64,000 nucleotides of DNA, taken from Escherichia coli. Lineage in GTDB: Bacteria; Pseudomonadota; Gammaproteobacteria; Enterobacterales; Enterobacteriaceae. The stretch is taken from assembly GCF_041886205.1 (NCBI RefSeq), contig NZ_CP169029.1; one strand, written 5' to 3'. The notes under the pieces were generated by a model that was not told where the DNA came from, did no database searches, and worked only from the letters and a program-made list of their open reading frames with translations. The position numbers and the translations under genes were made by a program. Of this stretch, positions 9,319 to 39,405 are shown one piece after another (positions within the stretch are counted from its first letter, which is position 1; each line of letters starts with the position of its first letter).

Positions 9319-9357
9319 AGTGTATTGGTAGCTAAAAAGCCAGGGGCGGTAGCGTGT
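9319..9357 (+). promoter_or_regulatory. JUMPstart element with ops (RfaH-dependent antitermination) site in wza leader
   Basis: cagtgtattggtagctaaaaagccaggGGCGGTAGcgtg; ops core GGCGGTAG at 9345-9352. Confidence 0.85.
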
Positions 9358-9534
9358 CTGGATGCCTGAAAGACCAGTCTGAATTATTCTGTCAATAGCC
9401 TGCGGATGAAATCAATTTTTTTAGGACTGATGCCAGTTAAATTTTTATTCAATTAACTGCAAGGTAAATGTGCATGGCGACATTGCTATTAATAGTGCAC
9501 AGGATAATTACTCTGCCAAAGTGATAAATAAACA

Positions 9535-10674
9535 ATGATGAAATCCAAAATGAAATTGATGCCATTATTGGTGTCAGTAACCTTGATAAGCGGTTGCACA
9601 GTACTTCCGGGCAGCAATATGTCGACGATGGGCAAAGACGTCATCAAACAGCAGGACGCTGATTTCGATCTCGACAAAATGGTGAATGTTTATCCGTTGA
9701 CCCCGCGCCTGATTGACCAATTACGTCCACGACCCAACGTAGCGCGCCCCAATATGACGCTGGAAAGCGAGATCGCGAATTACCAGTATCGCGTCGGGCC
9801 GGGGGACGTTCTTAATGTCACCGTCTGGGATCACCCGGAACTCACCACGCCAGCCGGTCAGTACCGCAGCTCCAGTGACACCGGCAACTGGGTACAGCCT
9901 GACGGCACCATGTTCTACCCGTATATCGGCAAGGTTCACGTAGTCGGGAAAACGCTCGCTGAAATCCGCAGTGATATTACCGGGCGCTTAGCGACGTACA
10001 TCGCTGACCCGCAGGTGGACGTTAATATCGCCGCCTTCCGCTCACAAAAGGCCTATATCTCAGGTCAGGTGAATAAATCCGGTCAACAGGCGATCACCAA
10101 CGTACCACTGACTATTCTCGACGCCATCAACGCCGCAGGTGGCCTGACCGACACCGCTGACTGGCGCAACGTGGTGCTAACACACAATGGTCGTGAAGAA
10201 CGCATTTCTTTGCAGGCGCTGATGCAAAACGGCGACCTCAATCAGAACCGACTGCTTTATCCCGGCGATATTCTCTACGTGCCGCGTAATGATGATCTGA
10301 AAGTATTTGTGATGGGTGAAGTGAAGAAACAGAGCACCCTGAAAATGGACTTTAGCGGCATGACCCTGACTGAAGCCCTGGGTAATGCTGAAGGCATCGA
10401 CATGACCACCTCCAACGCCAGCGGCATCTTTGTCATTCGTCCGCTGAAAGGCGAGGGCGGGCGTAATGGCAAGATTGCCAATATCTACCAGCTGGATATG
10501 TCCGATGCGACGTCGCTGGTGATGGCGACAGAATTCCGCCTGCAACCTTATGACGTGGTGTATGTCACCACCGCCCCGGTTTCCCGCTGGAACCGTCTGA
10601 TCAATCAGTTGCTGCCAACTATTAGCGGTGTCCGTTACATGACGGATACAGCCAGCGACATTCATAACTGGTAA
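9535..10674 (+). CDS. wza: Outer-membrane polysaccharide export lipoprotein Wza
   Basis: 379-aa [24 protein letters not shown] (lipobox), first gene of colanic acid cluster. Confidence 0.93.
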
Positions 10675-10679
10675 TCGTC

Positions 10680-11123
10680 ATGTTTAACAACATCTTAGTT
10701 GTCTGTGTCGGCAATATTTGCCGTTCCCCGACGGCGGAACGCTTACTGCAACGTTATCACCCGGAACTGAAAGTGGAGTCCGCTGGACTCGGCGCGCTGG
10801 TCGGTAAGGGCGCTGATCCTACCGCTATCAGCGTCGCCGCAGAACATCAACTGTCTCTGGAAGGTCACTGTGCACGGCAAATCAGCCGCCGTCTGTGTCG
10901 CAACTATGACCTGATTTTGACCATGGAAAAGCGCCATATCGAACGCTTATGCGAGATGGCACCTGAGATGCGCGGCAAAGTGATGCTGTTTGGTCACTGG
11001 GATAACGAATGTGAAATCCCCGATCCGTATCGCAAAAGCCGGGAAACGTTTGCAGCGGTGTACACATTACTTGAACGGTCTGCCCGCCAGTGGGCGCAGG
11101 CATTGAACGCAGAGCAGGTATAA
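10680..11123 (+). CDS. wzb: Low-molecular-weight protein-tyrosine phosphatase Wzb
   Basis: 147-aa ORF with CVGNICRSP active-site loop (C-X5-R). Confidence 0.93.
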   Translation: MFNNILVVCVGNICRSPTAERLLQRYHPELKVESAGLGALVGKGADPTAISVAAEHQLSLEGHCARQISRRLCRNYDLILTMEKRHIERLCEMAPEMRGKVMLFGHWDNECEIPDPYRKSRETFAAVYTLLERSARQWAQALNAEQV

Positions 11124-11125
11124 GA

Positions 11126-13288
11126 ATGACAGAAAAAGTAAAACAACATGCCGCTCCGGTAACGGGCAGTGATGAAATCGATATTGGTCGCCTGATCGGC
11201 ACCGTCATTGAAGCGCGCTGGTGGGTGATTGGCATCACCGCCGTATTTGCCCTCTGTGCCGTGGTTTACACCTTCTTCGCCACGCCGATTTATAGTGCCG
11301 ACGCACTGGTACAAATCGAGCAAAGCAGCGGCAATTCGCTGGTGCAGGATATCGGCTCGGCATTAGCCAACAAACCGCCTGCATCGGACGCCGAGATCCA
11401 GTTGATTCGTTCGCGTCTGGTGCTTGGTAAAACGGTGGACGATCTCGACCTCGATATTGCAGTGAGCAAAAACACGTTCCCGATTTTCGGTGCGGGCTGG
11501 GATCGTTTGATGGGACGTCAGAACGAGACGGTGAAAGTGACCACCTTTAACCGCCCGAAAGAGATGGCGGATCAGGTGTTTACGCTTAATGTGCTGGACG
11601 ATAAAAACTACACCCTGAGCAGTGATGGCGGCTTTAGCGCCCGTGGACAAGCGGGCCAGATGCTGAAAAAAGAAGGCGTCACGCTGATGGTTGAAGCCAT
11701 TCACGCCCGCCCGGGCAGTGAGTTTACCGTCACCAAATACTCCACGCTGGGGATGATCAATCAACTGCAAAACAGCCTGACGGTAACGGAGAACGGCAAA
11801 GACGCAGGCGTACTGAGCCTGACTTATACCGGTGAAGATCGCGAACAGATCCGCGACATTCTTAATAGCATCGCCCGTAACTATCAGGAACAAAATATTG
11901 AGCGCAAATCGGCGGAAGCGTCGAAAAGCCTCGCCTTCCTCGCGCAACAGTTACCGGAAGTACGTAGCCGCTTGGATGTTGCCGAAAACAAACTGAATGC
12001 CTTCCGTCAGGATAAAGATTCTGTTGATCTGCCGCTGGAAGCAAAAGCGGTGCTCGATTCGATGGTGAACATCGATGCGCAGTTGAACGAACTGACCTTT
12101 AAAGAGGCGGAAATCTCCAAGCTGTACACCAAAGTTCACCCGGCGTACCGCACGCTGCTGGAGAAACGTCAGGCGCTGGAAGAAGAGAAAGCCAAACTTA
12201 ACGGTCGCGTAACGGCGATGCCGAAAACCCAGCAGGAGATTGTGCGCCTGACCCGCGATGTCGAGTCTGGTCAGCAGGTCTATATGCAACTGCTGAATAA
12301 AGAGCAGGAGCTGAAAATCACCGAGGCCAGCACCGTCGGCGATGTGCGCATTGTTGACCCGGCAATCACTCAGCCTGGCGTGCTGAAACCGAAGAAAGGG
12401 CTGATTATCCTCGGCGCGATTATCCTTGGCCTGATGCTTTCTATCGTGGGTGTGCTGCTGCGCTCGTTGTTTAATCGCGGCATTGAAAGCCCGCAAGTAC
12501 TGGAAGAACACGGTATTAGCGTCTATGCCAGCATCCCGCTGTCGGAATGGCAGAAAGCGCGTGATAGCGTCAAAACCATCAAAGGGATTAAACGCTATAA
12601 ACAGAGCCAGCTACTGGCGGTGGGGAATCCAACCGATCTGGCGATTGAAGCCATCCGTAGTCTGCGTACCAGTTTGCACTTCGCGATGATGCAGGCACAG
12701 AACAATGTGTTGATGATGACTGGGGTTAGCCCGTCAATTGGTAAAACCTTTGTCTGCGCCAACCTGGCGGCGGTGATCAGCCAGACCAATAAACGCGTGT
12801 TGTTGATCGACTGCGATATGCGCAAAGGCTACACCCACGAGCTGTTGGGCACTAATAACGTTAATGGCCTGTCGGAAATTCTGATTGGTCAGGGCGATAT
12901 TACTACCGCTGCTAAACCGACCTCTATTGCCAAATTTGACCTGATCCCGCGCGGTCAGGTGCCGCCAAATCCTTCTGAACTGTTGATGAGCGAACGCTTT
13001 GCCGAACTGGTGAACTGGGCGAGTAAAAACTATGACCTGGTGTTGATTGATACGCCGCCGATTCTGGCAGTGACCGATGCGGCAATTGTTGGTCGTCATG
13101 TCGGAACCACGTTAATGGTGGCGCGTTATGCGGTCAACACATTGAAAGAAGTGGAAACCAGTCTGAGCCGCTTTGAGCAAAACGGTATTCCGGTGAAAGG
13201 GGTGATTCTGAACTCCATCTTCCGCCGCGCCAGCGCGTATCAGGATTATGGCTATTACGAATACGAATATAAGTCGGATGCGAAATAA
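11126..13288 (+). CDS. wzc: Tyrosine autokinase / polysaccharide co-polymerase Wzc
   Basis: ORF 11090-13288; canonical start MTEKVKQHAAPVTGSDEIDIGRL at 11126 (720 aa); Walker A GKT and C-terminal Tyr-rich tail YQDYGYYEYEYKSDAK. Confidence 0.93.
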   Translation: MTEKVKQHAAPVTGSDEIDIGRLIGTVIEARWWVIGITAVFALCAVVYTFFATPIYSADALVQIEQSSGNSLVQDIGSALANKPPASDAEIQLIRSRLVLGKTVDDLDLDIAVSKNTFPIFGAGWDRLMGRQNETVKVTTFNRPKEMADQVFTLNVLDDKNYTLSSDGGFSARGQAGQMLKKEGVTLMVEAIHARPGSEFTVTKYSTLGMINQLQNSLTVTENGKDAGVLSLTYTGEDREQIRDILNSIARNYQEQNIERKSAEASKSLAFLAQQLPEVRSRLDVAENKLNAFRQDKDSVDLPLEAKAVLDSMVNIDAQLNELTFKEAEISKLYTKVHPAYRTLLEKRQALEEEKAKLNGRVTAMPKTQQEIVRLTRDVESGQQVYMQLLNKEQELKITEASTVGDVRIVDPAITQPGVLKPKKGLIILGAIILGLMLSIVGVLLRSLFNRGIESPQVLEEHGISVYASIPLSEWQKARDSVKTIKGIKRYKQSQLLAVGNPTDLAIEAIRSLRTSLHFAMMQAQNNVLMMTGVSPSIGKTFVCANLAAVISQTNKRVLLIDCDMRKGYTHELLGTNNVNGLSEILIGQGDITTAAKPTSIAKFDLIPRGQVPPNPSELLMSERFAELVNWASKNYDLVLIDTPPILAVTDAAIVGRHVGTTLMVARYAVNTLKEVETSLSRFEQNGIPVKGVILNSIFRRASAYQDYGYYEYEYKSDAK

Positions 13289-13295
13289 CGAGATC

Positions 13296-13412
13296 CGTTG
13301 TCGGATGCGATGCTGACGCATCTTATCCGACCTACGTTGACGCCGCATCCGGCAAGCAAACCAGCTCCGTAGGCCGGATAAGGCGCTCACGCCGCATCCG
13401 GCAACAGAACCC
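13296..13412. repeat. REP element cluster between wzc and wcaA
   Basis: gtcggatgcgatgctgacgcatcttatccgacctac...gccgcatccggcaa palindromic REP units. Confidence 0.75.
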
Positions 13413-13465
13413 GTAAACAAGCTTATAAACCGGCAGAACATCTCGACACTCCGGGAGAACAACCT

Positions 13466-14305
13466 ATGAAAGACAATCCGCTGATCTCAATCTATATGCC
13501 GACCTGGAACCGCCAACAACTGGCGATTCGGGCGATAAAATCGGTCTTGCGCCAGGACTACAGCAACTGGGAGATGATCATCGTGGATGATTGCTCCACC
13601 TCCTGGGAACAACTGCAACAGTACGTCACCGCCCTCAACGATCCGCGTATCACTTACATTCACAACGACATTAACAGCGGGGCGTGCGCGGTACGTAACC
13701 AGGCTATTATGCTGGCGCAAGGGGAATACATTACCGGGATCGATGATGATGATGAATGGACACCCAACCGTCTGAGCGTCTTCCTCGCCCATAAACAGCA
13801 ACTGGTCACTCACGCCTTTTTGTACGCTAACGACTACGTTTGCCAGGGAGAAGTTTATTCCCAACCGGCAAGCTTACCACTGTATCCCAAATCGCCGTAC
13901 TCACGCCGCCTGTTCTATAAACGCAATATCATTGGCAATCAGGTCTTTACCTGGGCATGGCGTTTCAAAGAGTGTTTGTTCGATACCGAACTGAAAGCGG
14001 CACAGGATTACGACATCTTCCTGCGGATGGTGGTGGAGTACGGCGAACCGTGGAAAGTGGAAGAGGCGACGCAGATCCTGCATATCAATCACGGTGAAAT
14101 GCAGATCACCTCGTCACCGAAAAAATTCTCCGGATACTTCCACTTTTACCGCAAGCACAAAGACAAATTTGACCGCGCCAGCAAAAAATATCAGCTGTTT
14201 ACCCTCTACCAGATCCGCAATAAACGCATGACCTGGCGCACTTTGCTGACGCTGCTGTCGGTGCGTAACGGCAAACGTCTGGCTGATGGTATTCGGGGGC
14301 GCTAA
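13466..14305 (+). CDS. wcaA: Colanic acid glycosyltransferase WcaA (GT family 2)
   Basis: 279-aa ORF, SIYMPTWNRQ...DDCS...DDDD GT-2 motifs; cluster position. Confidence 0.88.
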   Translation: MKDNPLISIYMPTWNRQQLAIRAIKSVLRQDYSNWEMIIVDDCSTSWEQLQQYVTALNDPRITYIHNDINSGACAVRNQAIMLAQGEYITGIDDDDEWTPNRLSVFLAHKQQLVTHAFLYANDYVCQGEVYSQPASLPLYPKSPYSRRLFYKRNIIGNQVFTWAWRFKECLFDTELKAAQDYDIFLRMVVEYGEPWKVEEATQILHINHGEMQITSSPKKFSGYFHFYRKHKDKFDRASKKYQLFTLYQIRNKRMTWRTLLTLLSVRNGKRLADGIRGR

Positions 14306-14307
14306 AG

Positions 14308-14796
14308 ATGCTGGAAGATCTGCGCGCCAACAGCTGGAGTTTACGCCCGTGCTGCATGGTACTTGCCTATCGTGTTGCTCATTTTTGTTCGGTGTGGCGC
14401 AAAAAGAACGTCCTCAACAATCTGTGGGCGGCCCCGCTGCTGGTGCTGTATCGCATTATCACCGAATGCTTTTTCGGTTATGAAATCCAGGCTGCCGCGA
14501 CCATTGGCCGCCGCTTTACTATCCATCACGGTTACGCCGTAGTGATCAATAAAAACGTGGTAGCGGGGGATGATTTTACCATTCGCCACGGCGTAACTAT
14601 CGGCAATCGTGGTGCCGATAACATGGCATGTCCACACATTGGCAACAGCGTCGAACTCGGTGCCAACGTCATTATTCTTGGTGATATCACGCTTGGTAAC
14701 AACGTCACCGTGGGCGCGGGCAGCGTGGTGCTCGACTCTGTCCCGGACAACGCGCTGGTGGTGGGAGAAAAAGCGCGAGTGAAGGTAATTAAATGA
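14308..14796 (+). CDS. wcaB: Colanic acid acetyltransferase WcaB (hexapeptide-repeat)
   Basis: 162-aa ORF with left-handed beta-helix hexapeptide repeats (IGNRGAD..IGNSVELGANVIILGDITLGNNVTVGAGSVV). Confidence 0.88.
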   Translation: MLEDLRANSWSLRPCCMVLAYRVAHFCSVWRKKNVLNNLWAAPLLVLYRIITECFFGYEIQAAATIGRRFTIHHGYAVVINKNVVAGDDFTIRHGVTIGNRGADNMACPHIGNSVELGANVIILGDITLGNNVTVGAGSVVLDSVPDNALVVGEKARVKVIK

Positions 14797-17202: not shown

Positions 17203-17212
17203 GAATAAGAAC

Positions 17213-17959: not shown

Positions 17960-17974
17960 ATATAAGGGAAAACG

Positions 17975-18523: not shown

Positions 18524-18549
18524 ATTCAAAAAATACAGAGGAATAAGAC

Positions 18550-19671
18550 ATGTCAAAAGTCGCTCTCATCACCGGTGTAACCGGACAAGACGGTTCTTAC
18601 CTGGCAGAGTTTCTGCTGGAAAAAGGTTACGAGGTGCATGGTATTAAGCGTCGTGCATCGTCATTCAACACCGAGCGCGTGGATCACATTTATCAGGATC
18701 CGCACACCTGCAACCCGAAATTCCATCTGCATTATGGCGACCTGAGTGATACCTCCAACCTGACGCGCATTTTGCGTGAAGTGCAGCCGGATGAAGTGTA
18801 CAACCTGGGCGCAATGAGCCACGTTGCGGTTTCTTTTGAGTCACCGGAATATACCGCAGACGTCGATGCGATGGGTACGCTGCGCCTGCTGGAGGCGATC
18901 CGCTTCCTCGGTCTGGAAAAGAAAACCCGTTTCTATCAGGCTTCCACCTCTGAACTGTATGGTCTGGTGCAGGAAATTCCGCAGAAAGAAACCACGCCGT
19001 TCTATCCACGCTCTCCGTATGCGGTCGCCAAACTGTATGCCTACTGGATCACCGTTAACTACCGCGAATCCTACGGCATGTATGCCTGTAACGGTATTCT
19101 CTTCAACCATGAATCCCCGCGCCGCGGCGAAACCTTCGTTACCCGCAAAATCACCCGCGCAATCGCCAACATCGCCCAGGGGCTGGAGTCGTGCCTGTAC
19201 CTCGGCAATATGGATTCCCTGCGTGACTGGGGCCATGCCAAAGACTACGTAAAAATGCAGTGGATGATGCTGCAACAGGAACAACCGGAAGATTTCGTTA
19301 TTGCTACCGGCGTTCAGTACTCCGTGCGTCAGTTCGTAGAAATGGCGGCAGCACAGCTGGGCATCAAACTGCGCTTTGAAGGCACGGGTGTTGAAGAGAA
19401 GGGTATTGTGGTTTCCGTCACCGGGCATGACGCGCCGGGCGTTAAACCGGGCGATGTGATTATCGCCGTTGACCCGCGTTACTTCCGTCCGGCAGAAGTT
19501 GAAACGCTGCTCGGCGACCCGACCAAAGCGCACGAAAAACTGGGCTGGAAACCGGAAATCACCCTCAGAGAGATGGTGTCTGAAATGGTGGCTAATGACC
19601 TCGAAGCGGCGAAAAAACACTCTCTGCTGAAATCTCACGGCTACGACGTGGCGATCGCACTGGAGTCATAA
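18550..19671 (+). CDS. gmd: GDP-mannose 4,6-dehydratase (colanic acid copy)
   Basis: 373-aa [38 protein letters not shown]; SDR Rossmann fold. Confidence 0.93.
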
Positions 19672-19673
19672 GC

Positions 19674-20639
19674 ATGAGTAAACAACGCATTTTTATTGCT
19701 GGCCATCGCGGGATGGTCGGTTCCGCCATCAGGCGGCAGCTCGAACAGCGCGGTGATGTGGAACTGGTATTACGCACCCGCGACGAGCTGAACCTGCTGG
19801 ACAGCCGCGCTGTGCATGATTTCTTTGCCAGCGAAAGCATTGACCAGGTCTATCTGGCGGCGGCGAAAGTGGGCGGCATTGTTGCCAACAACACGTATCC
19901 GGCGGATTTCATCTACCAGAACATGATGATTGAGAGCAACATCATTCACGCCGCGCATCAGAACGACGTGAACAAACTGCTGTTTCTCGGATCGTCCTGT
20001 ATCTACCCGAAACTGGCAAAACAGCCGATGGCAGAAAGCGAGTTATTGCAGGGTACGCTGGAGCCGACCAACGAGCCTTACGCCATTGCCAAAATCGCCG
20101 GGATCAAACTGTGCGAATCTTACAACCGCCAGTATGGACGCGATTACCGCTCGGTCATGCCGACCAACCTGTACGGGCCACACGACAACTTCCATCCGAG
20201 TAACTCGCATGTGATCCCAGCATTGCTGCGTCGCTTCCACGAGGCGACGGCACAGAATGCGCCGGACGTGGTGGTGTGGGGCAGCGGTACACCGATGCGT
20301 GAATTTCTGCACGTCGATGATATGGCGGCGGCGAGCATTCATGTGATGGAGCTGGCGCACGAAGTCTGGCTGGAAAACACCCAGCCGATGCTGTCACACA
20401 TTAACGTCGGCACGGGCGTTGACTGCACTATCCGCGAGCTGGCGCAAACCATCGCCAAAGTGGTGGGTTACAAAGGTCGGGTGGTTTTTGATGCTAGCAA
20501 GCCGGATGGTACGCCGCGCAAACTGCTGGATGTGACGCGCCTGCATCAGCTTGGCTGGTATCACGAAATCTCACTGGAAGTGGGGCTTGCCAGCACTTAC
20601 CAGTGGTTCCTTGAGAATCAAGACCGCTTTCGGGGGTAA
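19674..20639 (+). CDS. fcl: GDP-L-fucose synthase (colanic acid copy)
   Basis: 321-aa [22 protein letters not shown]. Confidence 0.93.
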
Positions 20640-21121
20640 TGATGTTTTTACGTCAGGAAGACTTTGCCACGGTAGTGCGCTCCACTCCGCTTGTCTCTCT
20701 CGATTTTATTGTCGAGAACAGTCGCGGCGAGTTTCTGCTTGGCAAAAGAACCAACCGCCCGGCGCAGGGTTACTGGTTTGTGCCGGGAGGGCGCGTGCAG
20801 AAAGACGAAATGCTGGAAGCCGCATTTGAGCGGCTGACGATGGCGGAACTGGGGCTGCGTCTACCGATAACAGCAGGCCAGTTTTACGGTGTCTGGCAGC
20901 ACTTTTATGACGATAACTTCTCCGGCACGGATTTCACCACTCACTATGTGGTGCTCGGTTTTCGCTTCAGAGTCGCTGAAGAAGATCTGTTACTGCCGGA
21001 TGAGCAGCATGACGATTACCGCTGGCTGACGCCGGACGCGCTGCTCGCCAGTAACGATGTTCACGCTAACAGCCGCGCCTATTTTCTCGCTGAGAAGCGT
21101 GCCGGAGTACCCGGATTATGA
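20639..21121 (+). CDS. gmm: GDP-mannose mannosyl hydrolase (Nudix; colanic acid copy)
   Basis: 160-aa ORF, Nudix fold, [26 protein letters not shown]; exact start (20639 vs 20642) uncertain. Confidence 0.88.
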
Positions 21122-22341
21122 AAATACTGGTCTACGGCATTAACTACTCGCCGGAGTTAACCGGCATCGGCAAATACACCGGAGAGATGGTTGAATGGCT
21201 GGCGGCGCAAGGTCATGAGGTGCGGGTTATTACCGCACCGCCTTACTACCCGCAGTGGCAGGTGGGCGAGAACTATTCCGCCTGGCGGTACAAACGAGAA
21301 GAGGGGGCCGCTACGGTGTGGCGCTGCCCGCTGTACGTGCCAAAACAGCCGAGCACCCTGAAACGCCTGTTGCATCTCGGCAGTTTTGCCGTCAGCAGTT
21401 TTTTCCCGTTGATGGCGCAACGTCGCTGGAAGCCGGATCGCATTATCGGCGTAGTGCCAACGCTGTTTTGCACGCCGGGAATGCGCCTGCTGGCGAAACT
21501 CTCTGGCGCGCGTACCGTGCTGCATATTCAGGATTACGAAGTGGACGCCATGCTGGGGCTGGGCCTTGCCGGAAAAGGCAAAGGCGGCAAAGTGGCACAG
21601 CTGGCAACGGCGTTCGAACGTAGCGGACTGCATAACGTCGATAACGTCTCCACGATTTCGCGTTCGATGATGAATAAAGCCATCGAAAAAGGCGTGGCGG
21701 CAGAAAACGTCATCTTCTTCCCCAACTGGTCAGAAATTGCCCGTTTTCAGCATGTCGCAGATGTCGATGTTGATGCCCTTCGTAACCAGCTTGGCCTGCC
21801 GGATAACAAAAAAATCATTCTTTACTCCGGCAATATTGGTGAAAAGCAGGGGCTGGAAAACGTTATTGAAGCTGCCGATCGCCTGCGTGATGAACCGCTG
21901 ATTTTTGCCATTGTCGGGCAGGGCGGCGGCAAAGCGCGGCTTGAAAAAATGGCGCAGCAGCGTGGACTGCACAACATGCAATTTTTTCCGCTGCAATCGT
22001 ATGACGCTTTACCCGCACTGCTGAAGATGGGCGATTGCCATCTGGTGGTGCAAAAACGCGGCGCGGCAGATGCCGTATTGCCGTCGAAACTGACCAATAT
22101 TCTGGCGGTAGGCGGTAACGCGGTGATTACCGCAGAAGCCCACACCGAACTGGGGCAGCTTTGCGAAACCTTTCCGGGCATTGCGGTTTGCGTAGAACCG
22201 GAATCGGTCGAGGCGCTGGTGGCGGGGATTCGTCAGGCGCTCCTGCTGCCCAAACACAACACGGTGGCACGTGAATATGCCGAACGCACGCTCGATAAAG
22301 AGAACGTGTTACGTCAATTTATAAATGATATTCGGGGATAA
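21118..22341 (+). CDS. wcaI: Colanic acid glycosyltransferase WcaI (GT family 4)
   Basis: 407-aa ORF; cluster position. Confidence 0.88.
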
Positions 22342-22343
22342 TT

Positions 22344-23780
22344 ATGGCGCAGTCGAAACTCTATCCAGTTGTGATGGCAGGTGGCTCCGGGAGCCGCTTA
22401 TGGCCGCTTTCCCGCGTACTTTACCCCAAGCAGTTTTTATGCCTGAAAGGCGATCTCACCATGCTGCAAACCACCATCTGCCGCCTGAACGGCGTGGAGT
22501 GCGAAAGCCCGGTGGTGATTTGCAATGAGCAGCACCGCTTTATTGTCGCGGAACAGCTGCGTCAACTGAACAAACTCACCGAGAACATTATTCTCGAACC
22601 GGCAGGGCGTAACACTGCACCGGCCATTGCGCTGGCGGCGCTGGCGGCAAAACGTCATAGCCCGGAGAGCGACCCGTTAATGCTGGTCTTGGCGGCGGAT
22701 CATGTGATTGCCGATGAAGACGCGTTCCGTGCCGCCGTGCGTAATGCCATGCCGTATGCCGAAGCGGGCAAGCTGGTGACCTTTGGCATTGTGCCGGATC
22801 TCCCTGAAACCGGATATGGCTATATTCGTCACGGTGAAGTGTCTGCGGGTGAGCAGGATACGGTGGCCTTTGAAGTGGCGCAGTTTGTCGAAAAACCGAA
22901 TCTGGAAACCGCGCAGGCCTATGTGGCAAGCGGCGAATATTACTGGAACAGCGGCATGTTCCTGTTCCGCTCCGGACGCTATCTCGAAGAACTGAAAAAA
23001 TATCGCCCGGATATCCTCGATGCCTGTGAAAAAGCGATGAGCGCCGTCGATTCGGATCTCGATTTTATTCGTGTGGATGAAGAAGCGTTTCTCGCCTGCC
23101 CGGAAGAGTCGGTGGATTACGCGGTCATGGAACGAACGGCAGATGCCGTTGTGGTGCCGATGGATGCGGGCTGGAGCGATGTCGGTTCTTGGTCTTCATT
23201 ATGGGAGATCAGCGCCCACACCGCCGAGGGCAATGTTTGCCACGGCGATGTGATTAATCACAAAACTGAAAACAGCTATGTGTATGCCGAATCTGGCCTG
23301 GTCACCACCGTCGGGGTGAAAGATTTGGTGGTAGTGCAGACCAAAGATGCAGTGCTGATTGCCGACCGTAACGCGGTGCAGGATGTGAAAAAAGTGGTCG
23401 AGCAGATCAAAGCCGATGGTCGCCATGAGCATCGGGTGCATCGCGAAGTGTATCGTCCGTGGGGCAAATATGACTCTATCGACGCGGGCGACCGCTACCA
23501 GGTGAAACGCATCACCGTGAAACCGGGCGAAGGCTTGTCGGTACAGATGCATCATCACCGCGCGGAACACTGGGTGGTTGTCGCAGGAACGGCAAAAGTC
23601 ACTATCGACGGTGATATCAAACTGCTTGGTGAAAACGAGTCCATTTATATTCCGCTGGGGGCGACGCATTGCCTGGAAAACCCGGGGAAAATTCCGCTCG
23701 ATTTAATTGAAGTGCGCTCCGGCTCTTATCTCGAAGAGGATGATGTGGTGCGCTTCGCGGATCGCTACGGACGGGTGTAA
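22344..23780 (+). CDS. cpsB: Mannose-1-phosphate guanylyltransferase (colanic acid copy)
   Basis: 478-aa [27 protein letters not shown] with C-terminal cupin domain. Confidence 0.93.
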
Positions 23781-23781
23781 A

Positions 23782-23885
<104 letters not shown>

Positions 23886-23972
23886 GAATGCGAAACCGAG
23901 ATGTAAATAACGACAAAAACAAAATTGGCCGTTTCGGTCAGGGCCAACTATTGCCTGAAAAAGGGTAACGAC

Positions 23973-25343
23973 ATGAAAAAATTAACCTGCTTTAAAGCCT
24001 ATGATATTCGCGGGAAATTAGGCGAAGAACTGAATGAAGATATCGCCTGGCGCATTGGTCGCGCCTATGGCGAATTTCTCAAACCGAAAACCATTGTGTT
24101 AGGCGGTGATGTCCGTCTCACCAGCGAAACCTTAAAACTGGCGCTGGCGAAAGGTTTACAGGATGCGGGCGTCGATGTGCTGGATATTGGCATGTCCGGC
24201 ACCGAAGAGATCTATTTCGCCACGTTCCATCTCGGCGTGGATGGCGGCATTGAAGTTACCGCCAGCCATAATCCGATGGATTATAACGGCATGAAACTGG
24301 TGCGCGAAGGGGCTCGCCCAATCAGCGGTGATACCGGACTGCGCGACGTCCAGCGTCTGGCAGAAGCCAACGACTTTCCTCCCGTCGATGAAACCAAACG
24401 CGGTCGCTATCAGCAAATCAACCTGCGTGACGCTTACGTTGATCACCTGTTCGGTTATATCAATGTCAAAAACCTCACGCCGCTCAAGCTGGTGATTAAC
24501 TCCGGGAATGGCGCAGCGGGTCCGGTGGTGGACGCCATTGAAGCCCGCTTTAAAACCCTCGGCGCGCCCGTGGAATTGATCAAAGTGCACAACACGCCCG
24601 ACGGCAATTTCCCCAACGGTATTCCTAACCCGCTGCTGCCTGAATGCCGCGACGACACCCGCAATGCGGTCATCAAACACGGCGCGGATATGGGCATTGC
24701 CTTTGATGGCGATTTTGACCGCTGTTTTCTGTTTGACGAAAAAGGGCAGTTTATCGAGGGCTACTACATTGTCGGCCTGCTGGCAGAAGCGTTCCTCGAA
24801 AAAAATCCCGGCGCGAAGATCATCCACGATCCGCGTCTCTCCTGGAACACCGTTGATGTGGTGACTGCCGCAGGCGGCACCCCGGTAATGTCGAAAACCG
24901 GACACGCCTTTATTAAAGAACGTATGCGCAAGGAAGACGCCATCTACGGTGGCGAAATGAGCGCCCACCATTACTTCCGTGATTTCGCTTACTGCGACAG
25001 CGGCATGATCCCGTGGCTGCTGGTCGCCGAACTGGTGTGCCTGAAAGGAAAAACGCTGGGCGAACTGGTGCGCGACCGGATGGCTGCGTTTCCGGCAAGC
25101 GGTGAGATCAACAGCAAACTGGCGCAACCCGTTGAGGCGATTAATCGCGTCGAACAGCATTTTAGCCGTGAGGCGCTGGCGGTGGATCGTACCGATGGCA
25201 TCAGCATGACCTTTGCCGACTGGCGCTTTAACCTGCGCTCTTCCAACACCGAACCGGTGGTGCGGTTGAATGTTGAATCGCGCGGTGATGTGCCGCTGAT
25301 GGAAGCGCGAACGCGAACTCTGCTGACGTTGCTGAATGAGTAA
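23973..25343 (+). CDS. cpsG: Phosphomannomutase (colanic acid copy)
   Basis: ORF 23925-25343; canonical start [15 protein letters not shown] (456 aa); TASHNP phosphoserine motif. Confidence 0.93.
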
Positions 25344-25397
25344 TGTCGGATCTTCCCTTACCCCACTGCGGGTAAGGGGCTAATAACAGGAACAACG

Positions 25398-26792: not shown

Positions 26793-26793
26793 T

Positions 26794-28272: not shown

Positions 28273-28299
28273 GTTGTTGTTTTCGGTTCCGACAACGGT

Positions 28300-28790
28300 T
28301 GCCGGGTGCAGCGTAAAACGCCTTATCCATCCTACGGTTCTGTGCTCGGGACCTGTAGGCCTGATAAGACGCGTCAGCGTCGCATCAGGCACTGAATGCC
28401 GGATGCGGCGTGAACGCCTTATCCGGCCTACGGTTCTGTGCTCGGATCTTGTAGGCCTGATAAGACGCGCCAGCGTCGCATCAGGCACTGAATGCCGGAT
28501 GCGGCGTAAAACGCCTTATCCGGCCTACGGTTCTGTGCTCGGGTCTTGTAGGCCTGATAAGACGCGTCAGCGTCGCATCAGGCACTGAATGCCGGATGCG
28601 GCGTGAACGCCTTATCCGGCCTACGGTTCTGTGCTCGGATCTTGTAGGCCTGATAAGACGCGCCAGCGTCGCATCAGGCACTGAATGCCGGATGCGGCGT
28701 GAACGCCTTATCCGGCCTACGGTTCTGTGCTCGGGTCTTGTAGGCCTGATAAGACGCGCCAGCGTCGCATCAGGCAAAAAACGGCAACGA
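28300..28790. repeat. BIME/REP array: about five tandem ~96-bp units of paired REP palindromes
   Basis: unit gccggatgcggcgtgaacgccttatccggcctacggttctgtgctcgg.tcttgtaggcctgataagacgcg.cagcgtcgcatcaggcactgaat recurring with 95-97 bp period (anchors at 28381, 28477, 28574, 28669, 28765). Confidence 0.9.
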
Positions 28791-28836
28791 ACAAAACAAA
28801 CGCAGCCTCACCTGGCATCAAATTTATGAGGAAAAA

Positions 28837-30117
28837 ATGAAATTACTTATTCTGGGCAACCACACTTGCGGCAATCGTGGCGACAGCGCCATCTTGCGTG
28901 GCTTACTTGATGCCATCAACATCCTCAATCCACACGCCGAAGTGGACGTGATGAGCCGCTATCCGGTCAGTTCTTCCTGGCTGCTCAACCGCCCGGTAAT
29001 GGGCGATCCGCTGTTCCTGCAAATGAAACAACACAACAGCGCGGCGGGCGTTGTCGGGCGCGTTAAAAAAGTCCTCCGTCGCCGCTACCAGCATCAGGTA
29101 TTGCTCTCACGCGTCACCGACACTGGCAAGCTGCGTAATATCGCCATCGCCCAGGGATTCACCGACTTCGTGCGCTTGCTGTCAGGTTACGACGCCATTA
29201 TTCAGGTCGGCGGATCGTTTTTTGTCGATCTCTATGGTGTGCCGCAGTTTGAACACGCACTTTGCACGTTTATGGCGAAAAAGCCGCTGTTTATGATTGG
29301 TCACAGCGTCGGTCCCTTCCAGGATGAGCAATTTAACCAACTGGCGAACTACGTTTTTGGTCACTGCGATGCGTTGATCCTGCGCGAATCGGTCAGCCTT
29401 GATTTGATGAAACGCAGCAATATCACCACTGCAAAAGTTGAACATGGCGTCGATACCGCGTGGCTGGTCGATCACCACACAGAAGATTTCACCGCCAGCT
29501 ATGCCGTCCAACACTGGCTGGACGTTGCCGCACAACAGAAAACGGTGGCAATTACCCTGCGCGAACTGGCACCGTTCGACAAACGCCTCGGCACCACTCA
29601 ACAAGCGTATGAAAAAGCCTTTGCCGGGGTGGTCAATCGCATTCTCGACGGAGGCTATCAGGTCATTGCGCTCTCCACCTGTACGGGCATCGACAGCTAT
29701 AACAAAGACGACCGCATGGTAGCGCTCAATCTGCGCCAGCACATCAGCGATCCTGCCCGTTACCACGTAGTGATGGATGAACTCAACGATCTGGAAATGG
29801 GCAAAATTCTCGGGGCCTGTGAACTCACCGTCGGTACGCGCCTGCACTCCGCCATTATCTCGATGAATTTTGCCACTCCGGCAATTGCCATCAACTACGA
29901 ACATAAATCCGCCGGGATTATGCAACAACTGGGGCTGCCAGAGATGGCGATTGATATCCGTCATTTACTGGACGGCAGCTTGCAAGCGATGGTTGCGGAT
30001 ACCTTAGGCCAACTTCCGGCGCTGAACGCGCGACTTAACGAAGCCGTCAGTCGTGAACGTCAGACGGGAATGCAGATGGTGCAATCTGTGCTTGAGCGCA
30101 TCGGGGAGGCGAAATGA
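28837..30117 (+). CDS. wcaK: Colanic acid pyruvyl transferase WcaK
   Basis: 426-aa ORF MKLLILGNHTCGNRGDSAI; polysaccharide pyruvyl transferase family. Confidence 0.88.
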   Translation: MKLLILGNHTCGNRGDSAILRGLLDAINILNPHAEVDVMSRYPVSSSWLLNRPVMGDPLFLQMKQHNSAAGVVGRVKKVLRRRYQHQVLLSRVTDTGKLRNIAIAQGFTDFVRLLSGYDAIIQVGGSFFVDLYGVPQFEHALCTFMAKKPLFMIGHSVGPFQDEQFNQLANYVFGHCDALILRESVSLDLMKRSNITTAKVEHGVDTAWLVDHHTEDFTASYAVQHWLDVAAQQKTVAITLRELAPFDKRLGTTQQAYEKAFAGVVNRILDGGYQVIALSTCTGIDSYNKDDRMVALNLRQHISDPARYHVVMDELNDLEMGKILGACELTVGTRLHSAIISMNFATPAIAINYEHKSAGIMQQLGLPEMAIDIRHLLDGSLQAMVADTLGQLPALNARLNEAVSRERQTGMQMVQSVLERIGEAK

Positions 30118-31334
30118 AGGTCGGCTTCTTTTTACTGAAATTTCCGCTGTCGTCGGAAACCTTCGTCCTCAATCAAATTACCGCGTTTATTGATATGGGA
30201 TTTGAGGTGGAGATCGTCGCGTTGCAAAAAGGCGATACAGAGAACACCCACGCGGCATGGACGAAATACAACCTTGCCGCCAGAACCCGCTGGTTACAGG
30301 ACGAACCTACGGGCAAAGTGGCGAAACTGCGCCACCGCGCCAGCCAGACGTTACGCGGCATACATCGTAAAAATACCTGGCAGGCGCTCAACCTCAAACG
30401 CTATGGTGCCGAGTCGCGGAACCTGATTTTGTCTGCCATTTGCGGCCAGGTCGTAGCACCGCTTCATGCCGATGTCTTTATCGCTCACTTTGGTCCCGCA
30501 GGGGTAACCGCAGCAAAACTCCGCGAACTGGGTGTCATTCGCGGCAAAATTGCCACTATCTTCCACGGTATTGATATCTCCAGTCGGGAGGTGCTCAACC
30601 ATTACACTCCCGAATATCAGCAACTGTTCCGCCGCGGCGATCTGATGCTACCAATAAGCGATCTGTGGGCCGGAAGGCTGCAAAAAATGGGCTGCCCGAG
30701 GGAAAAAATCGCCGTATCGCGCATGGGCGTGGACATGACGCGTTTTAGCCCGCGTCCGGTGAAAGCGCCCGCAACGCCGCTGGAAATCATCTCCGTCGCA
30801 CGCTTAACCGAAAAAAAAGGCCTGCATGTGGCGATCGAAGCCTGCCGTCAGTTGAAAGAGCAGGGCATGGCATTTCGCTATCGCATCCTCGGCATTGGCC
30901 CGTGGGAACGACGCCTGCGCACCCTCATCGAACAATATCAACTGGAAGATGTGGTAGATATGCCGGGCTTTAAACCGAGCCATGAAGTGAAAGAGATGCT
31001 CGATGACGCGGATGTCTTCCTGTTGCCATCGGTAACGGGCGCGGATGGCGATATGGAAGGTATTCCGGTGGCACTAATGGAAGCGATGGCGGTCGGCATT
31101 CCGGTGGTTTCTACTCTGCATAGCGGAATACCTGAATTGGTGGAGGCCGATAAATCCGGCTGGCTGGTGCCTGAGAACGATGCTCGCGCTCTGGCACAAC
31201 GTCTGGCGACGTTTAGCCAACTGGACACCGACGAACTGGCTCCGGTCGTCAAACGTGCGCGCGAAAAAGTCGAACACGATTTTAACCAGCAGGTGATCAA
31301 TCGAGAACTCGCCAGCTTGCTGCAGGCTTTATAG
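30114..31334 (+). CDS. wcaL: Colanic acid glycosyltransferase WcaL (GT family 4)
   Basis: 406-aa ORF overlapping wcaK stop. Confidence 0.88.
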
Positions 31335-31344
31335 AGGAGAACGC

Positions 31345-32739
31345 ATGCCATTTAAAAAACTCTCCCGACGCACCTTCCTGACGGCAAGCTCGGCGCTTGC
31401 CTTCCTCCATACCCCTTTCGCTCGCGCACTTCCGGCCCGACAAAGCGTTAACATTAACGACTACAATCCACACGACTGGATCGCCTCATTTAAACAAGCC
31501 TTCAGCGAAGGGCAAACGGTCGTCGTGCCTGCCGGATTGGCTTGTGACAATATCAACACCGGCATCTTTATCCCTCCCGGTAAAACGTTACACATCCTTG
31601 GAAGCCTGCGCGGCAATGGCAGAGGGCGATTTGTCTTACAGGACGGCAGCCAGGTGACAGGGGAGGAGGGCAGCAGTATGCATAACATCACCCTGGATGT
31701 GCGCGGCTCTGACTGCACCATCAAAGGTCTGGCGATGAGCGGCTTTGGCCCGGTAACGCAGATTTATATCGGCGGCAAAAACAAACGGGTCATGCGCAAC
31801 CTGACCATCGATAACCTCACTGTCAGCCACGCTAATTACGCCATCTTACGCCAGGGATTTCATAACCAGATAATCGGTGCCAACATCACCAACTGTAAGT
31901 TCAGCGACTTACAGGGCGACGCCATTGAATGGAACGTGGCAATTAACGACAGTGATATTTTGATCTCCGACCATGTCATCGAGCGCATCAACTGTACTAA
32001 CGGCAAAATCAACTGGGGCATCGGCATAGGCCTTGCGGGAAGTACCTACAATAACAATTACCCGGAAGACCAGGCAGTGAAAAACTTTGTTGTGGCGAAT
32101 ATCACAGGATCGGATTGTCGGCAGTTGATCCATGTTGAAAATGGTAAACATTTTGTTATTCGTAATATCAAAGCCAGCAATATCACGCCGGATTTCAGTA
32201 AGAAAGCAGGTATTGATAACGCGACGGTCGCTATTTACGGTTGTGAGAATTTCGTGATTGATAATATTGAAATGATTAATAGCGCCGGGATGTTAATCGG
32301 CTATGGGGTAATTAAAGGCAAATATCTCTCGATACCGCAAAATTTCCGAGTGAATAATATTCAGCTGGATAACACCCATCTTGCTTATAAATTGCGCGGT
32401 ATCCAAATCTCCGCCGGGAATGCTGTCTCCTTTGTGGCGCTGACTAACATTGAGATGAAGCGTGCCTCGCTTGAGCTACACAACAAACCGCAACATCTTT
32501 TTATGCGAAATATCAAGGTGATGCAGGAATCCTCAGTTGGACCCGCATTGAGCATGAACTTCGACATGCGCAAAGACGTTCGCGGCGTGTTTATGGCGAA
32601 AAAAGAAACACTGCTGTCTCTTGCAAATGTTCATGCGGTGAATGAAAGAGGGCAAAGCTCCGTCGATATCGACAGGATTAATCACCATATTGTTAATGTG
32701 GAAAAGATTAACTTTAGATTGCCGGAACGGAGAGAGTAG
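31345..32739 (+). CDS. wcaM: Colanic acid biosynthesis protein WcaM (secreted, beta-helix-like)
   Basis: 464-aa ORF with Tat/Sec-like N-terminus [20 protein letters not shown]. Confidence 0.88.
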
Positions 32740-32896
32740 ATTTGCGACCATTCATAAACTTACTGGATATAATGTTCTAAAAGATTATAATCCTCACACT
32801 AACTGTTAAAGCTGGGGCTGGGCAGCATTGACTACTCAGGGAAGGTACTCATCTTTATCTTGTGTTTCTTACGTAACAACCAGACTAAAGTGATTT

Positions 32897-33892
32897 ATGA
32901 ACGATAACGTTTTGCTCATAGGAGCTTCCGGATTCGTAGGAACCCGACTACTTGAAACGGCAATTGCTGACTTTAATATCAAGAACCTGGACAAACAGCA
33001 GAGCCACTTTTATCCAGAAATCACACAGATTGGTGATGTTCGTGATCAACAGGCACTCGACCAGGCGTTAGCCGGTTTTGACACTGTTGTGCTACTGGCA
33101 GCGGAACACCGCGATGACGTCAGCCCTACTTCTCTCTATTATGATGTCAACGTTCAGGGTACCCGCAATGTGCTGGCGGCCATGGAAAAAAATGGCGTTA
33201 AAAATATCATCTTTACCAGTTCCGTTGCTGTTTATGGTTTGAACAAACACAACCCTGACGAAAACCATCCACACGATCCCTTCAACCACTACGGCAAAAG
33301 TAAGTGGCAGGCAGAGGAAGTGCTGCGTGAATGGTATAACAAAGCACCAACAGAACGTTCATTAACCATCATCCGTCCTACCGTTATCTTCGGTGAACGG
33401 AACCGCGGTAACGTCTATAACTTGCTGAAACAGATCGCTGGCGGCAAGTTTATGATGGTGGGCGCAGGGACTAACTATAAGTCCATGGCTTATGTTGGAA
33501 ACATTGTTGAGTTTATCAAGTACAAACTGAAGAATGTTGCCGCAGGTTACGAGGTTTATAACTACGTTGATAAGCCAGACCTGAACATGAACCAGTTGGT
33601 TGCTGAAGTTGAACAAAGCCTGAACAAAAAGATCCCTTCTATGCACTTGCCTTACCCACTAGGAATGCTGGGTGGATATTGCTTTGATATCCTGAGCAAA
33701 ATTACGGGCAAAAAATACGCTGTCAGCTCTGTGCGCGTGAAAAAATTCTGCGCAACAACACAGTTTGACGCAACGAAAGTGCATTCTTCAGGTTTTGTGG
33801 CACCGTATACGCTGTCGCAAGGTCTGGATCGAACTCTGCAGTATGAATTCGTCCATGCCAAAAAAGACGACATAACGTTTGTTTCTGAGTAA
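32897..33892 (+). CDS. gne: NAD-dependent 4-epimerase of the Gne/Z3206 type (GlcNAc/GalNAc epimerase family)
   Basis: 331-aa SDR ORF MNDNVLLIGASGFVGTRLL with YGKSK catalytic motif; lies between wcaM and galF as in O157/O55-type loci. Confidence 0.75.
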   Translation: MNDNVLLIGASGFVGTRLLETAIADFNIKNLDKQQSHFYPEITQIGDVRDQQALDQALAGFDTVVLLAAEHRDDVSPTSLYYDVNVQGTRNVLAAMEKNGVKNIIFTSSVAVYGLNKHNPDENHPHDPFNHYGKSKWQAEEVLREWYNKAPTERSLTIIRPTVIFGERNRGNVYNLLKQIAGGKFMMVGAGTNYKSMAYVGNIVEFIKYKLKNVAAGYEVYNYVDKPDLNMNQLVAEVEQSLNKKIPSMHLPYPLGMLGGYCFDILSKITGKKYAVSSVRVKKFCATTQFDATKVHSSGFVAPYTLSQGLDRTLQYEFVHAKKDDITFVSE

Positions 33893-34134
33893 TGCAGACG
33901 AGTCAGAGAAAAAAGGACCAGGTTGGACTACGATTATTCGGAAAGAGGTACTGATTAAATTATCAGTATGTGGATTTCCGAGTAATCCGAGTAACCCAGA
34001 TGCTGATGGTGTGTAGTGTTATCGTAAGGTTTAATCAAAGTTATGCGGAACTAAGCTTTGGTATATAGCCATAACGTTTGGCTAACCTATGGCAATAATT
34101 TACGCACTATCAGCCACTTAGAGGTAGGAAAAGA

Positions 34135-35028
34135 ATGACGAATTTAAAAGCAGTTATACCGGTAGCAGGTCTTGGGATGCATATGTTGCCTGCCACTAAG
34201 GCGATTCCCAAAGAGATGCTACCGATCGTCGACAAGCCAATGATTCAGTACATTGTTGACGAGATTGTGGCTGCAGGGATCAAAGAAATCCTCCTGGTAA
34301 CTCACGCGTCCAAGAACGCAGTCGAAAACCACTTCGACACCTCTTATGAATTAGAATCTCTCCTTGAACAGCGCGTGAAGCGTCAACTACTGGCGGAAGT
34401 ACAATCTATCTGTCCGCCGGGCGTGACCATTATGAACGTGCGTCAGGGTGAACCTTTAGGTTTAGGCCACTCCATTTTATGTGCGCGACCTGCCATTGGT
34501 GACAATCCATTTGTCGTGGTGCTGCCAGACGTTGTGATCGACGACGCCAGCGCCGACCCGTTGCGTTACAACCTTGCTGCCATGATTGCGCGCTTCAATG
34601 AAACGGGCCGTAGCCAGGTGCTGGCAAAACGTATGCCGGGTGACCTCTCTGAATACTCCGTCATCCAGACCAAAGAACCGCTGGATCGTGAAGGTAAAGT
34701 CAGCCGCATTGTTGAATTTATCGAAAAACCGGATCAGCCGCAGACGCTGGACTCAGACATAATGGCCGTTGGTCGCTATGTGCTTTCTGCCGATATTTGG
34801 CCGGAACTTGAACGCACTCAGCCTGGTGCATGGGGACGTATTCAGCTGACTGATGCCATTGCTGAACTGGCGAAAAAACAGTCCGTTGATGCCATGCTGA
34901 TGACAGGTGACAGCTACGACTGCGGTAAAAAAATGGGTTATATGCAGGCGTTTGTGAAGTATGGACTACGCAACTTGAAAGAAGGGGCGAAGTTCCGCAA
35001 AGGTATCGAGAAGCTGTTAAGCGAATAA
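34135..35028 (+). CDS. galF: UTP-glucose-1-phosphate uridylyltransferase-like regulatory subunit GalF
   Basis: 297-aa [42 protein letters not shown]. Confidence 0.93.
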
Positions 35029-35254
35029 TGAAAATCTGACCGAATGTAACGGTTGATAAGGAAATAATAACGGCAGTGAAAAACTATAGATCAATAAATA
35101 TCACTGCTGTTGAGCGTTTATAATTAACTATGCTACCAATGAATAAATAGTGTGCAGATATGTATTTTTTGTTTGGTAGTCTTGTTTCTCCCTCTGAATA
35201 ATAAGATAATAAACGCTTGGAGATGATTTTTTTAACATGGATTATCATTTCGTA

Positions 35255-35288
35255 CACTGGTAGCGATTAAGCCAGGGGCGGTAGCGTG
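35255..35288 (+). promoter_or_regulatory. JUMPstart/ops element in the O-antigen cluster leader
   Basis: cactggtagcgattaagccaggGGCGGTAGcgtg; ops core at 35277-35284; second copy of the motif seen upstream of wza. Confidence 0.85.
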
Positions 35289-39403: not shown

Positions 39404-39405
39404 AA

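Follow-up and report, generated by a model that had tools for sequence, protein, structure and literature searches.

An RcsAB box together with a JUMPstart element is reportedly present in the promoters of Erwinia amylovora amsG and Pantoea stewartii cpsA (wceG) (Wehland et al. 1999; Wehland & Bernhard 2000), and a JUMPstart is said to follow galF at the 5′ end of Escherichia coli O-antigen gene clusters (Hobbs & Reeves 1994), that of O157 among them (Wang & Reeves 1998). Transcription of the colanic-acid operon is described in the literature as a JUMPstart-RfaH mechanism, and the promoter-JUMPstart leader of the cps (wza) operon is known from Escherichia coli K-12 (Stout 1996, as cited in PMC9976346). 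In E. coli O-antigen clusters, including that of O157, the conserved 5′ boundary is a 39-bp JUMPstart located downstream of galF (DebRoy et al. 2016, PMC4732683). The element includes ops, a 12-nt sequence GGCGGTAGnnTG whose pause-inducing T11-G12 dinucleotide occurs in all validated RfaH targets (PMC5995543). Pausing of RNA polymerase takes place at this dinucleotide. The non-template GGCGGTAG folds into a short hairpin from which T6 is flipped out, and this hairpin recruits and activates RfaH, which then stays on polymerase until termination, excluding NusG, while its refolded C-terminal domain brings 30S subunits to leaders without Shine-Dalgarno elements (PMC5995543). Here we analyze 64,000 nucleotides of the E. 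coli contig NZ_CP169029.1 (assembly GCF_041886205.1; hereafter the window), in which one such element precedes the colanic-acid operon and another precedes the O157 O-antigen cluster. These are very probably two standard JUMPstart/ops leader elements of the his-linked polysaccharide region, with a mechanism that is established for the family and would extend to the present copies.

The arrangement matches exactly that described for E. coli K-12, CFT073 and O157. The initial annotation had placed identical GGCGGTAG cores at 9345-9352 and 35277-35284 of the + strand, and both are found there. Each is the start of a complete ops 12-mer, GGCGGTAGCGTG, with 0 mismatches, and the two elements also have in common a 20-nt run, AAGCCAGGGGCGGTAGCGTG, and a TGGTAGC upstream. 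A JUMPstart motif scan, which the same annotation had called for, bears the assignment out: with the Rfam model RF01707 (38 positions, gathering score 35), the wza leader scores 57.3 bits (E = 1.6e-10) and the O-antigen leader 39.9 bits (E = 1.7e-05), both above the gathering score, and both matches span model positions 1-38, including the 5-bp stem. Each element carries an ops with T11-G12 and sits in the sense-strand 5′ leader of a long polysaccharide operon. Every sequence-level defining feature that we tested is present, both elements belong to the known JUMPstart family, and the two motifs are the textbook, already known RfaH-loading signals of the colanic-acid and O157 O-antigen operons.

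The two leaders closely follow their described counterparts. The wza leader has the same locus, the same GGCGGTAGCGTG and the same distance to wza as that of K-12 and CFT073, with nothing substantive setting it apart and simply an O157-serogroup background; in CFT073 this 12-mer likewise lies 190 nt before wza (PMC9765446). The CFT073 O-antigen ops lies 67 nt after the transcription-unit start defined by RNA-seq and 71 nt before the first gene (PMC9765446). The second element of the window shares with the galF-downstream JUMPstarts of E. coli O-antigen clusters the order galF, promoter, JUMPstart, first gene, and the same ops. Its promoter-to-JUMPstart spacer is shorter than in most other galF-JUMPstart loci aligned, and its leader differs from the others in an O157-specific AT-rich palindrome at 35294-35328, immediately 3′ of ops (z = -2.1).

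The GGCGGTAG 8-mer alone is unspecific, with 4 copies in the window against ~1.1 expected and 5/100 dinucleotide shuffles reaching 4. The two further copies, one in yegH and one in wcaI (Table 1), deviate from ops at positions 11-12 and lack the T11-G12 dinucleotide, and an Rfam search found no JUMPstart context around either. Since yegH is transcribed from the - strand, the + strand copy at 8758 is not on its non-template strand; it is a chance occurrence outside the system. The copy at 22104 lies on the sense strand and was considered as an internal RfaH reloading site. We rejected this role because T11 is absent and because coding-region ops sites in CFT073 show no RfaH signal in chromatin immunoprecipitation (ChIP; 0/34, PMC9765446), and this copy is probably inert.

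The JUMPstart core recurs widely in Enterobacterales. An exact-pattern scan of a species-representative genome collection with the 18-mer GCCAGGGGCGGTAGCGTG returned at least 120 loci, and among the matches listed almost all are from this order. About 24 of the matches listed are followed by a wza ortholog (86-100% amino-acid identity) that starts ~215 nt after the motif, about 15 stand before capsule clusters of the ams/cps type in Pantoea, Erwinia, Mixta, Brenneria and Tatumella, and about 30 lie directly downstream of galF. Further copies of the 18-mer sit on contigs whose labels read Arthrobacter sp., Opitutales, Erysipelotrichia, Spirochaetaceae, Actinomycetes and Halomonas (loci L054, L026, L060, L062, L066 and L079). 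L054 is a 4-kb contig with 2x coverage whose GalF is 100% identical to that of the window, and so probably represents E. coli contamination; the other five contigs may reflect contamination or mis-binning.

We next consider how each leader is likely to be transcribed. For the wza leader we aligned the 468 nt ending at ops from the window and from 21 colanic-type loci of other species, mostly of other genera (22 sequences); identity figures are from the 18 non-Escherichia loci. The JUMPstart element is kept in all 21 loci, and the wza spacer has a mean identity to the window of 53%. Segments with at least 75% identity are 8918-8935, 9067-9102, 9115-9138, 9150-9191 and the JUMPstart itself (9315-9356). 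The most conserved spacer block, 9150-9191, reads CTTGCCTG…TTAGCTG(T/C)AACA(C/A)T and contains the putative wza (cps) promoter, which has a 17-nt spacer and an extended -10 TG at 9179-9180. Transcription would start at ~9194-9197, placing ops ~150 nt into the transcript. A simple sigma-70 consensus scan favored TGGAGA-16-CATAAT (9202-9229) as the main wza promoter; we rejected this pair because its conservation stops outside Escherichia, while the adjacent block is conserved.

Other features of the wza leader were apparent from the same comparisons. Of 5426 complete E. coli genomes, 4818 contain the yegH-wza intergenic region (8943-9534), which is 97.6-100% identical in the rows sampled from these. 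The sole complete genome with a 100% identical leader, E. coli ET734 (NZ_CP100922; locus L122), bears an IS1 insertion at the equivalent of window positions 8974-8981, ~57 nt upstream of the 14-mer at 9038-9051 discussed below, with an 8-bp overlap resembling a target duplication; the mapped promoter and JUMPstart elements are all intact. An Escherichia-specific hairpin followed by UUUU lies at 9263-9303, just 5′ of the JUMPstart (z = -2.8). 3′ of ops, three blocks are near-invariant across genera beside variable neighboring spacer, namely 9385-9398 (ATTATTCTGTCAAT), 9416-9443 (TTTTTTTAGGACTGATGCCAGTTA) and 9497-9534 (GCACAGGATAATTACTCTGCCAAAGTGATAAATAAACA), and they include two GGA motifs, which may hint at CsrA. 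An Rfam search of the wza leader found no family besides JUMPstart, and the search for conserved RNA structure 3′ of ops gave a weak consensus energy (-8.5) with almost no covariation. These blocks could be an undescribed post-transcriptional control site, a reading that we regard as improbable.

The O-antigen leader appears to be built on a similar promoter. In a footprint of ~30 galF-JUMPstart spacers from Enterobacteriaceae, a CTTGTTT-17-GACAAT block recurs in most of the spacers from outside the window, and the window has the corresponding putative promoter. Transcription would start near 35217, with ops ~60 nt into the transcript. A simple sigma-70 scan proposed TTGGTA-18-AATAAT (35173-35202) as the main promoter, which we rejected because, unlike the adjacent block, it is not conserved outside Escherichia/O157. 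The conserved blocks of both leaders point to one common plan, a CTTGYYT-17-(A/G)ACA(A/C)T-type promoter followed by a JUMPstart. Upstream of the O-antigen promoter, a terminator-like hairpin is predicted after galF, and the orthologous hairpin, AACGGCAG…CTGCCGTTTT, is kept in the ~30 galF-JUMPstart loci. In the best-matching O157 genomes listed, the 318-bp spacer from galF to the first O157 gene has an identity of 99.4-100%; megablast found at least 80% of it in 305 genomes, and the complete spacer only in O157-type genomes.

Control of initiation at wza raises the question of where RcsAB would bind. We scored candidate sites against the RcsAB consensus TaAGaatatTCcta, whose conserved (capital) positions are T1, A3, G4, T10 and C11, and against the structure-derived RcsB box TN(G/A)GAN4TC(T/C)NA. 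The initial annotation had proposed an RcsAB-box-like site at 9118-9131. The 14-mer there is TAATATAATTCTTA, as that proposal implied, and it belongs to a conserved cis-element, but its RcsAB score does not exceed chance. On either strand it matches 10/14 positions, a score that reaches 11/14 in certain other genera. Of the 22 aligned sequences, 21 have T at position 4 and none has G, and the reverse strand lacks C11. Within 8943-9534, 3 sites score at least 10/14 against 1.48 expected, and 21% of 1000 dinucleotide shuffles do as well. With a score at chance for an AT-rich spacer, the proposal does not hold on scoring alone. We likewise abandoned a consensus match by itself as a criterion for RcsAB sites, as the chance-level score in AT-rich DNA gives no discrimination. 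Exact matches to the RcsB box number 0 in the wza leader and one in the whole window, at 51064; 9118-9131 and 9038-9051 each deviate from it by 1 mismatch, and 9083-9096 deviates by 2.

A better candidate for the canonical box lies farther upstream. The 14-mer at 9038-9051 scores 9/14 against TaAGaatatTCcta and has all 5 conserved positions. It is conserved in Escherichia and Citrobacter and can be recognized at several more colanic-type loci, among them Enterobacter sp. Bisph1 (L003), L088 and L094. The ams/cps promoters of Erwinia and Pantoea share with the wza leader an ordered series of elements, namely a full RcsAB box, ~90-100 bp, TCYTAAAA, 31 bp, CTTGYN, JUMPstart and the first gene. 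They differ in that their box is a near-perfect palindrome (11-13/14, 0-1 RcsB-box mismatches) lying 98-99 bp rather than 89 bp upstream of the proximal element, in that TCYTAAAA is present as a single copy, and in that their first gene encodes the initiating transferase, not wza. The shorter distance in the window is about one helical turn less, which would keep the box on roughly the same helical face. Relative to the amsG-type ATG, the Erwinia/Pantoea full boxes lie at -558…-545 to -580…-567, which fits the experimentally mapped amsG site of E. amylovora, reportedly at -555…-533. By sequence and spacing, 9038-9051 is the positional counterpart of these full boxes, and we consider it slightly more likely than not to be the canonical RcsAB box, ahead of 9118-9131.

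What distinguishes the proximal element is its position. Its core is TCTTAAAA, written TCYKAAA across loci, and the distance from the start of this core down to the CTTGYN -35-like block is exactly 31 bp in all loci measured, which comprise colanic-type loci as well as Erwinia, Pantoea, Mixta and Winslowiella capsule loci. Copies of the core, TCYTAAAA, lie at 9092-9099 and 9127-9134, and the former, an TCCTAAAA duplicate 35 bp upstream, occurs in colanic-type loci only. It belongs to the block at 9083-9096, which scores 10/14 against TaAGaatatTCcta and falls inside the conserved segment 9067-9102. Examples of TCYTAAAA among the other loci are L058, L082, L017 and L081. A TATAAT at 9121-9126, inside the proximal 14-mer, was considered as a -10 element and rejected, since TATTAA or TCATAT stands at that place in other genera, the invariant part being the downstream TCTTAAAA. 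These patterns suggest that 9118-9131 is distinct from the canonical box, a conserved element close to the promoter that looks like an RcsB half-site.

Alternatively, 9118-9131 could itself be the canonical wza RcsAB box, with 9038-9051 secondary or irrelevant, a reading that we consider possible though rather doubtful. Among the RcsB-box-like 14-mers of the spacer it shows the strongest conservation, with at most 1 mismatch in 20 of the 22 aligned sequences, its consensus score reaches 10-11/14, and by eye it agrees at 12/14 positions with the Klebsiella pneumoniae galF box TAAGATTATTCTCA as quoted in the literature. Its center, ~-70 from the putative start site, is also the classic position of a class-I activator. 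Nevertheless, the consensus G4 is absent from all 22 sequences, the site lacks C11 on the opposite strand, and the score is that expected by chance in such an AT-rich region. Moreover, the Erwinia/Pantoea counterpart of 9118-9131 (TAGTCTTAATCCTA), located at -469…-456 from amsG, deviates by 2 mismatches, while the 0-mismatch boxes of these genera lie elsewhere, at about -558…-545. We regard it as improbable that 9118-9131 is part of a separate, undescribed operator with the core TCYTAAAA that binds a second RcsB-containing complex or another factor alongside the distal box. A full-text literature search for the four candidate 14-mers gave no matches, and no description of the TCYTAAAA element was found in the searchable literature.

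Taken with published work, these features suggest a route to full-length expression of both clusters. Polymerase would start at a sigma-70-type promoter, with TTGCCT-17-AACACT serving wza and TTGTTT-17-GATAAT serving the O-antigen cluster, enter the leader and pause at ops T11-G12, where the non-template GGCGGTAG hairpin would recruit RfaH. Bound until termination, RfaH would exclude NusG and Rho and counteract H-NS filaments, and its refolded KOW domain would deliver ribosomes to first genes without a Shine-Dalgarno. The expected outcome is that both operons, of 23 kb and 14 kb, are expressed over their full length. Initiation control would differ between the two: the wza promoter is preceded by putative Rcs-type operators, of which the canonical box would most likely be 9038-9051 with half-site-like elements at 9083-9096 and 9118-9131, and nothing RcsAB-like is present in the O-antigen leader (best score 8/14). 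Neither wza nor the first O157 gene has a canonical Shine-Dalgarno; their anti-Shine-Dalgarno pairing energies (-1.6 and -1.5 kcal/mol, respectively) are the weakest within their operons, and for wza the match is confined to GUGAU with 16S AUCAC. GC content is 30-39% in the O157 cluster and 52-56% in most of the colanic cluster, and such low-GC DNA is typical of the kind prone to H-NS and Rho. The weak pairing of the first genes and the AT-rich O157 cluster make the sequence consistent with the RfaH mechanism.

The initial annotation had further held that both operons depend on RfaH antitermination. For orthologous copies of both elements, those of CFT073, published ChIP-seq supports RfaH binding, and the literature asserts the mechanism for K-12 cps; binding and dependence of the distal genes would be expected here. 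In CFT073, RfaH ChIP-seq gives a signal at the O-antigen leader in the wild type (Hustmyer et al. 2022, PMC9765446). Several observations nonetheless weigh against the interpretation or narrow it. RfaH at wza-wcaM of CFT073 was seen only in a delta-hns delta-stpA strain, the operon being silent in rich medium (PMC9765446), so that dependence of this operon on RfaH would be conditional on Rcs induction. The rfaH gene lies outside the window. Intrinsic-terminator-like sites are not enriched inside the operons (24 sites where 23 are expected, and 18 where 13.4 are expected), and the barriers to be overcome by RfaH here are presumably Rho, H-NS or REP-type (repetitive extragenic palindromic) sequences. 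Both putative transcription start sites are placed by conservation alone, and the simple promoter scan chose other, nonconserved hexamer pairs. Finally, the choice of 9038-9051 as RcsAB box draws on consensus positions, spacing and the coordinate reported for amsG.

It is very unlikely that the JUMPstart acts mainly as an RNA element, a 5′ untranslated hairpin affecting mRNA stability or translation, instead of recruiting RfaH through non-template DNA. The Rfam family does treat the element as a cis-regulatory RNA containing a 5-bp stem, and both copies are able to pair that stem (UUGGU/GCCAG and CUGGU/GCCAG). The predicted folds, however, are no more stable than those of shuffled sequences (z = -1.4 and -0.1), and ops, the invariant part of the element, is unpaired. 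In structural and genetic studies, ops was recognized as non-template DNA with T6 flipped (PMC5995543), and RfaH loads at the orthologous sites in ChIP (PMC9765446). A further reading would make the matches chance hits or inert relics that regulate nothing in this strain today, as the 8-mer count reached by 5% of shuffles and the silence of the CFT073 wza operon under laboratory conditions might suggest. Conservation effectively refutes it: two perfect 12-mers lie inside 38-nt Rfam matches of full length (E = 1e-10 and 1e-5), their leader positions are exactly those seen in other strains, and the elements are conserved across genera while the flanking spacer diverged to ~53% identity.

Group 1 capsule clusters (E. 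coli K30 and Klebsiella cps) offer a further comparison. In common with the colanic-acid operon they have a leader JUMPstart/ops, promoter-proximal wza-wzb-wzc and a strong hairpin after wzc; in group 1 clusters the JUMPstart stands before wzi. Klebsiella group-1-type clusters have a stem-loop attenuator after wzc, in the same position as the hairpin of the wzc-wcaA spacer in the window. The latter has a minimum free energy of -70.5 kcal/mol (z = -5.7), and 0/200 shuffles are equally stable. Unlike the group 1 attenuator, it is built from REP-type repeats and lacks a T-run, and it may act as an attenuator by analogy.

Table 1. Coordinates of the leader elements, candidate operators, promoters and genes in the window (position 1 is its first nucleotide)
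Feature	Position	Strand	Description
JUMPstart, wza leader	9318-9356	+	RF01707 full length; ops at 9345-9356, 190 nt before the wza ATG
JUMPstart, O-antigen leader	35251-35288	+	RF01707 full length; ops at 35277-35288, 70 nt before the first O157 gene
Chance GGCGGTAG 8-mer	8758-8765	+	Reads GGCGGTAGTTTT; inside yegH (- strand gene)
Intragenic GGCGGTAG 8-mer	22104-22111	+	Reads GGCGGTAGGCGG; inside wcaI, sense strand
Putative wza (cps) promoter	9159-9187	+	-35 TTGCCT 9159-9164; -10 AACACT 9182-9187
Putative O-antigen promoter	35182-35210	+	-35 TTGTTT 35182-35187; 17-nt spacer; -10 GATAAT 35205-35210
Best candidate canonical RcsAB box	9038-9051	+	TAAGAAATATCGCA; ~150 bp upstream of the putative wza transcription start site
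Second RcsB-half-site-like block	9083-9096	+	TAAAGAAACTCCTA, with invariant TCCTAAAA; colanic-type loci only
RcsAB-box-like site of the initial annotation	9118-9131	+	TAATATAATTCTTA; promoter-proximal, invariant TCTTAAAA core, within segment 9115-9138
galF terminator-like hairpin	35068-35112	+	AACGGCAGTGA…TCACTGCTGTT, T-run degraded; predicted fold
Colanic-acid operon wza-wzb-wzc-wcaA…wcaM	9535-32739	+	~23 kb; open reading frame map, annotation and Wza/Wzb/Wzc orthology
REP-type inverted-repeat hairpin, wzc-wcaA spacer	13289-13465	+	Possible internal transcription barrier (predicted function)
gne	32897-33892		
galF	34135-35028		
O157 O-antigen gene cluster	35347-49089	+	Annotation of a collinear O157:H16 genome

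The surrounding region is an ordinary segment of the E. coli chromosome, as judged from the open reading frame map and the annotation of a collinear O157:H16 genome. The gene order is dgcE, udk, dcd, asmA, yegH (on the - strand), wza…wcaM, gne, galF, the O-antigen cluster, gnd, ugd, wzzB and his. Both JUMPstart elements are co-oriented with the multigene clusters downstream of them. To say that they bracket the colanic cluster, as had been proposed, is slightly loose, since the second lies 2.5 kb past wcaM, beyond gne and galF. The O157 cluster contains a family 2 glycosyltransferase gene (GT2), wzy, a GT gene, wzx, per/rfbE, a GT4 gene, gmd, fcl, gmm, manC, manB, an ISAs1 remnant and perB, and the O-antigen region is 99.5-99.6% identical to O157 strains across 14.5 kb. 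The remnant, between manB and perB at ~47.4-48.4 kb, is a degraded transposase of the ISAs1 family (H-repeat) according to the O157:H16 annotation.

Several other features of the two clusters were noted in passing. The GDP-mannose/fucose set (gmd, fcl, gmm, manC, manB) is duplicated, with one set in each cluster (18550-25343 and 41759-47161), and the two sets share identical stretches, for example 24705-24726 and 46523-46544, which are potential substrates for inter-cluster recombination. Upstream of their ATGs, gne (32880-32896) and wza (9516-9534) share an atypical motif, AAAGTGAT, which includes the GUGAU complementary to 16S AUCAC; both genes lack a GGAGG-type Shine-Dalgarno. Within the colanic cluster, an algC RNA motif (RF02929, 78.2 bits) lies at 23919-23968 (+) between cpsB/manC and cpsG/manB, and four tandem copies of REP/BIME (bacterial interspersed mosaic element; Rfam naRNA4) lie between wzxC and wcaK at 28358-28717 (-). 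The his operon leader (RF00514, 131.6 bits, 60427-60550, -) and the STnc240 small RNA (68.2 bits, 63289-63363, +) are ordinary for the region.

Our results add nothing new on RfaH or JUMPstart themselves. Mildly new is the cross-genus footprint of the wza promoter, which sets a distal, full RcsAB-type box against a strictly positioned proximal TCYTAAAA element and also flags the conserved blocks of the wza leader at 9385-9398, 9416-9443 and 9497-9534. For annotation, the value lies in defining the 5′ leaders, together with the likely promoters and operators, of two large surface-polysaccharide operons in O157-serogroup E. coli, whose JUMPstart/ops elements would explain full transcription of operons of 14-23 kb, one of them very AT-rich.

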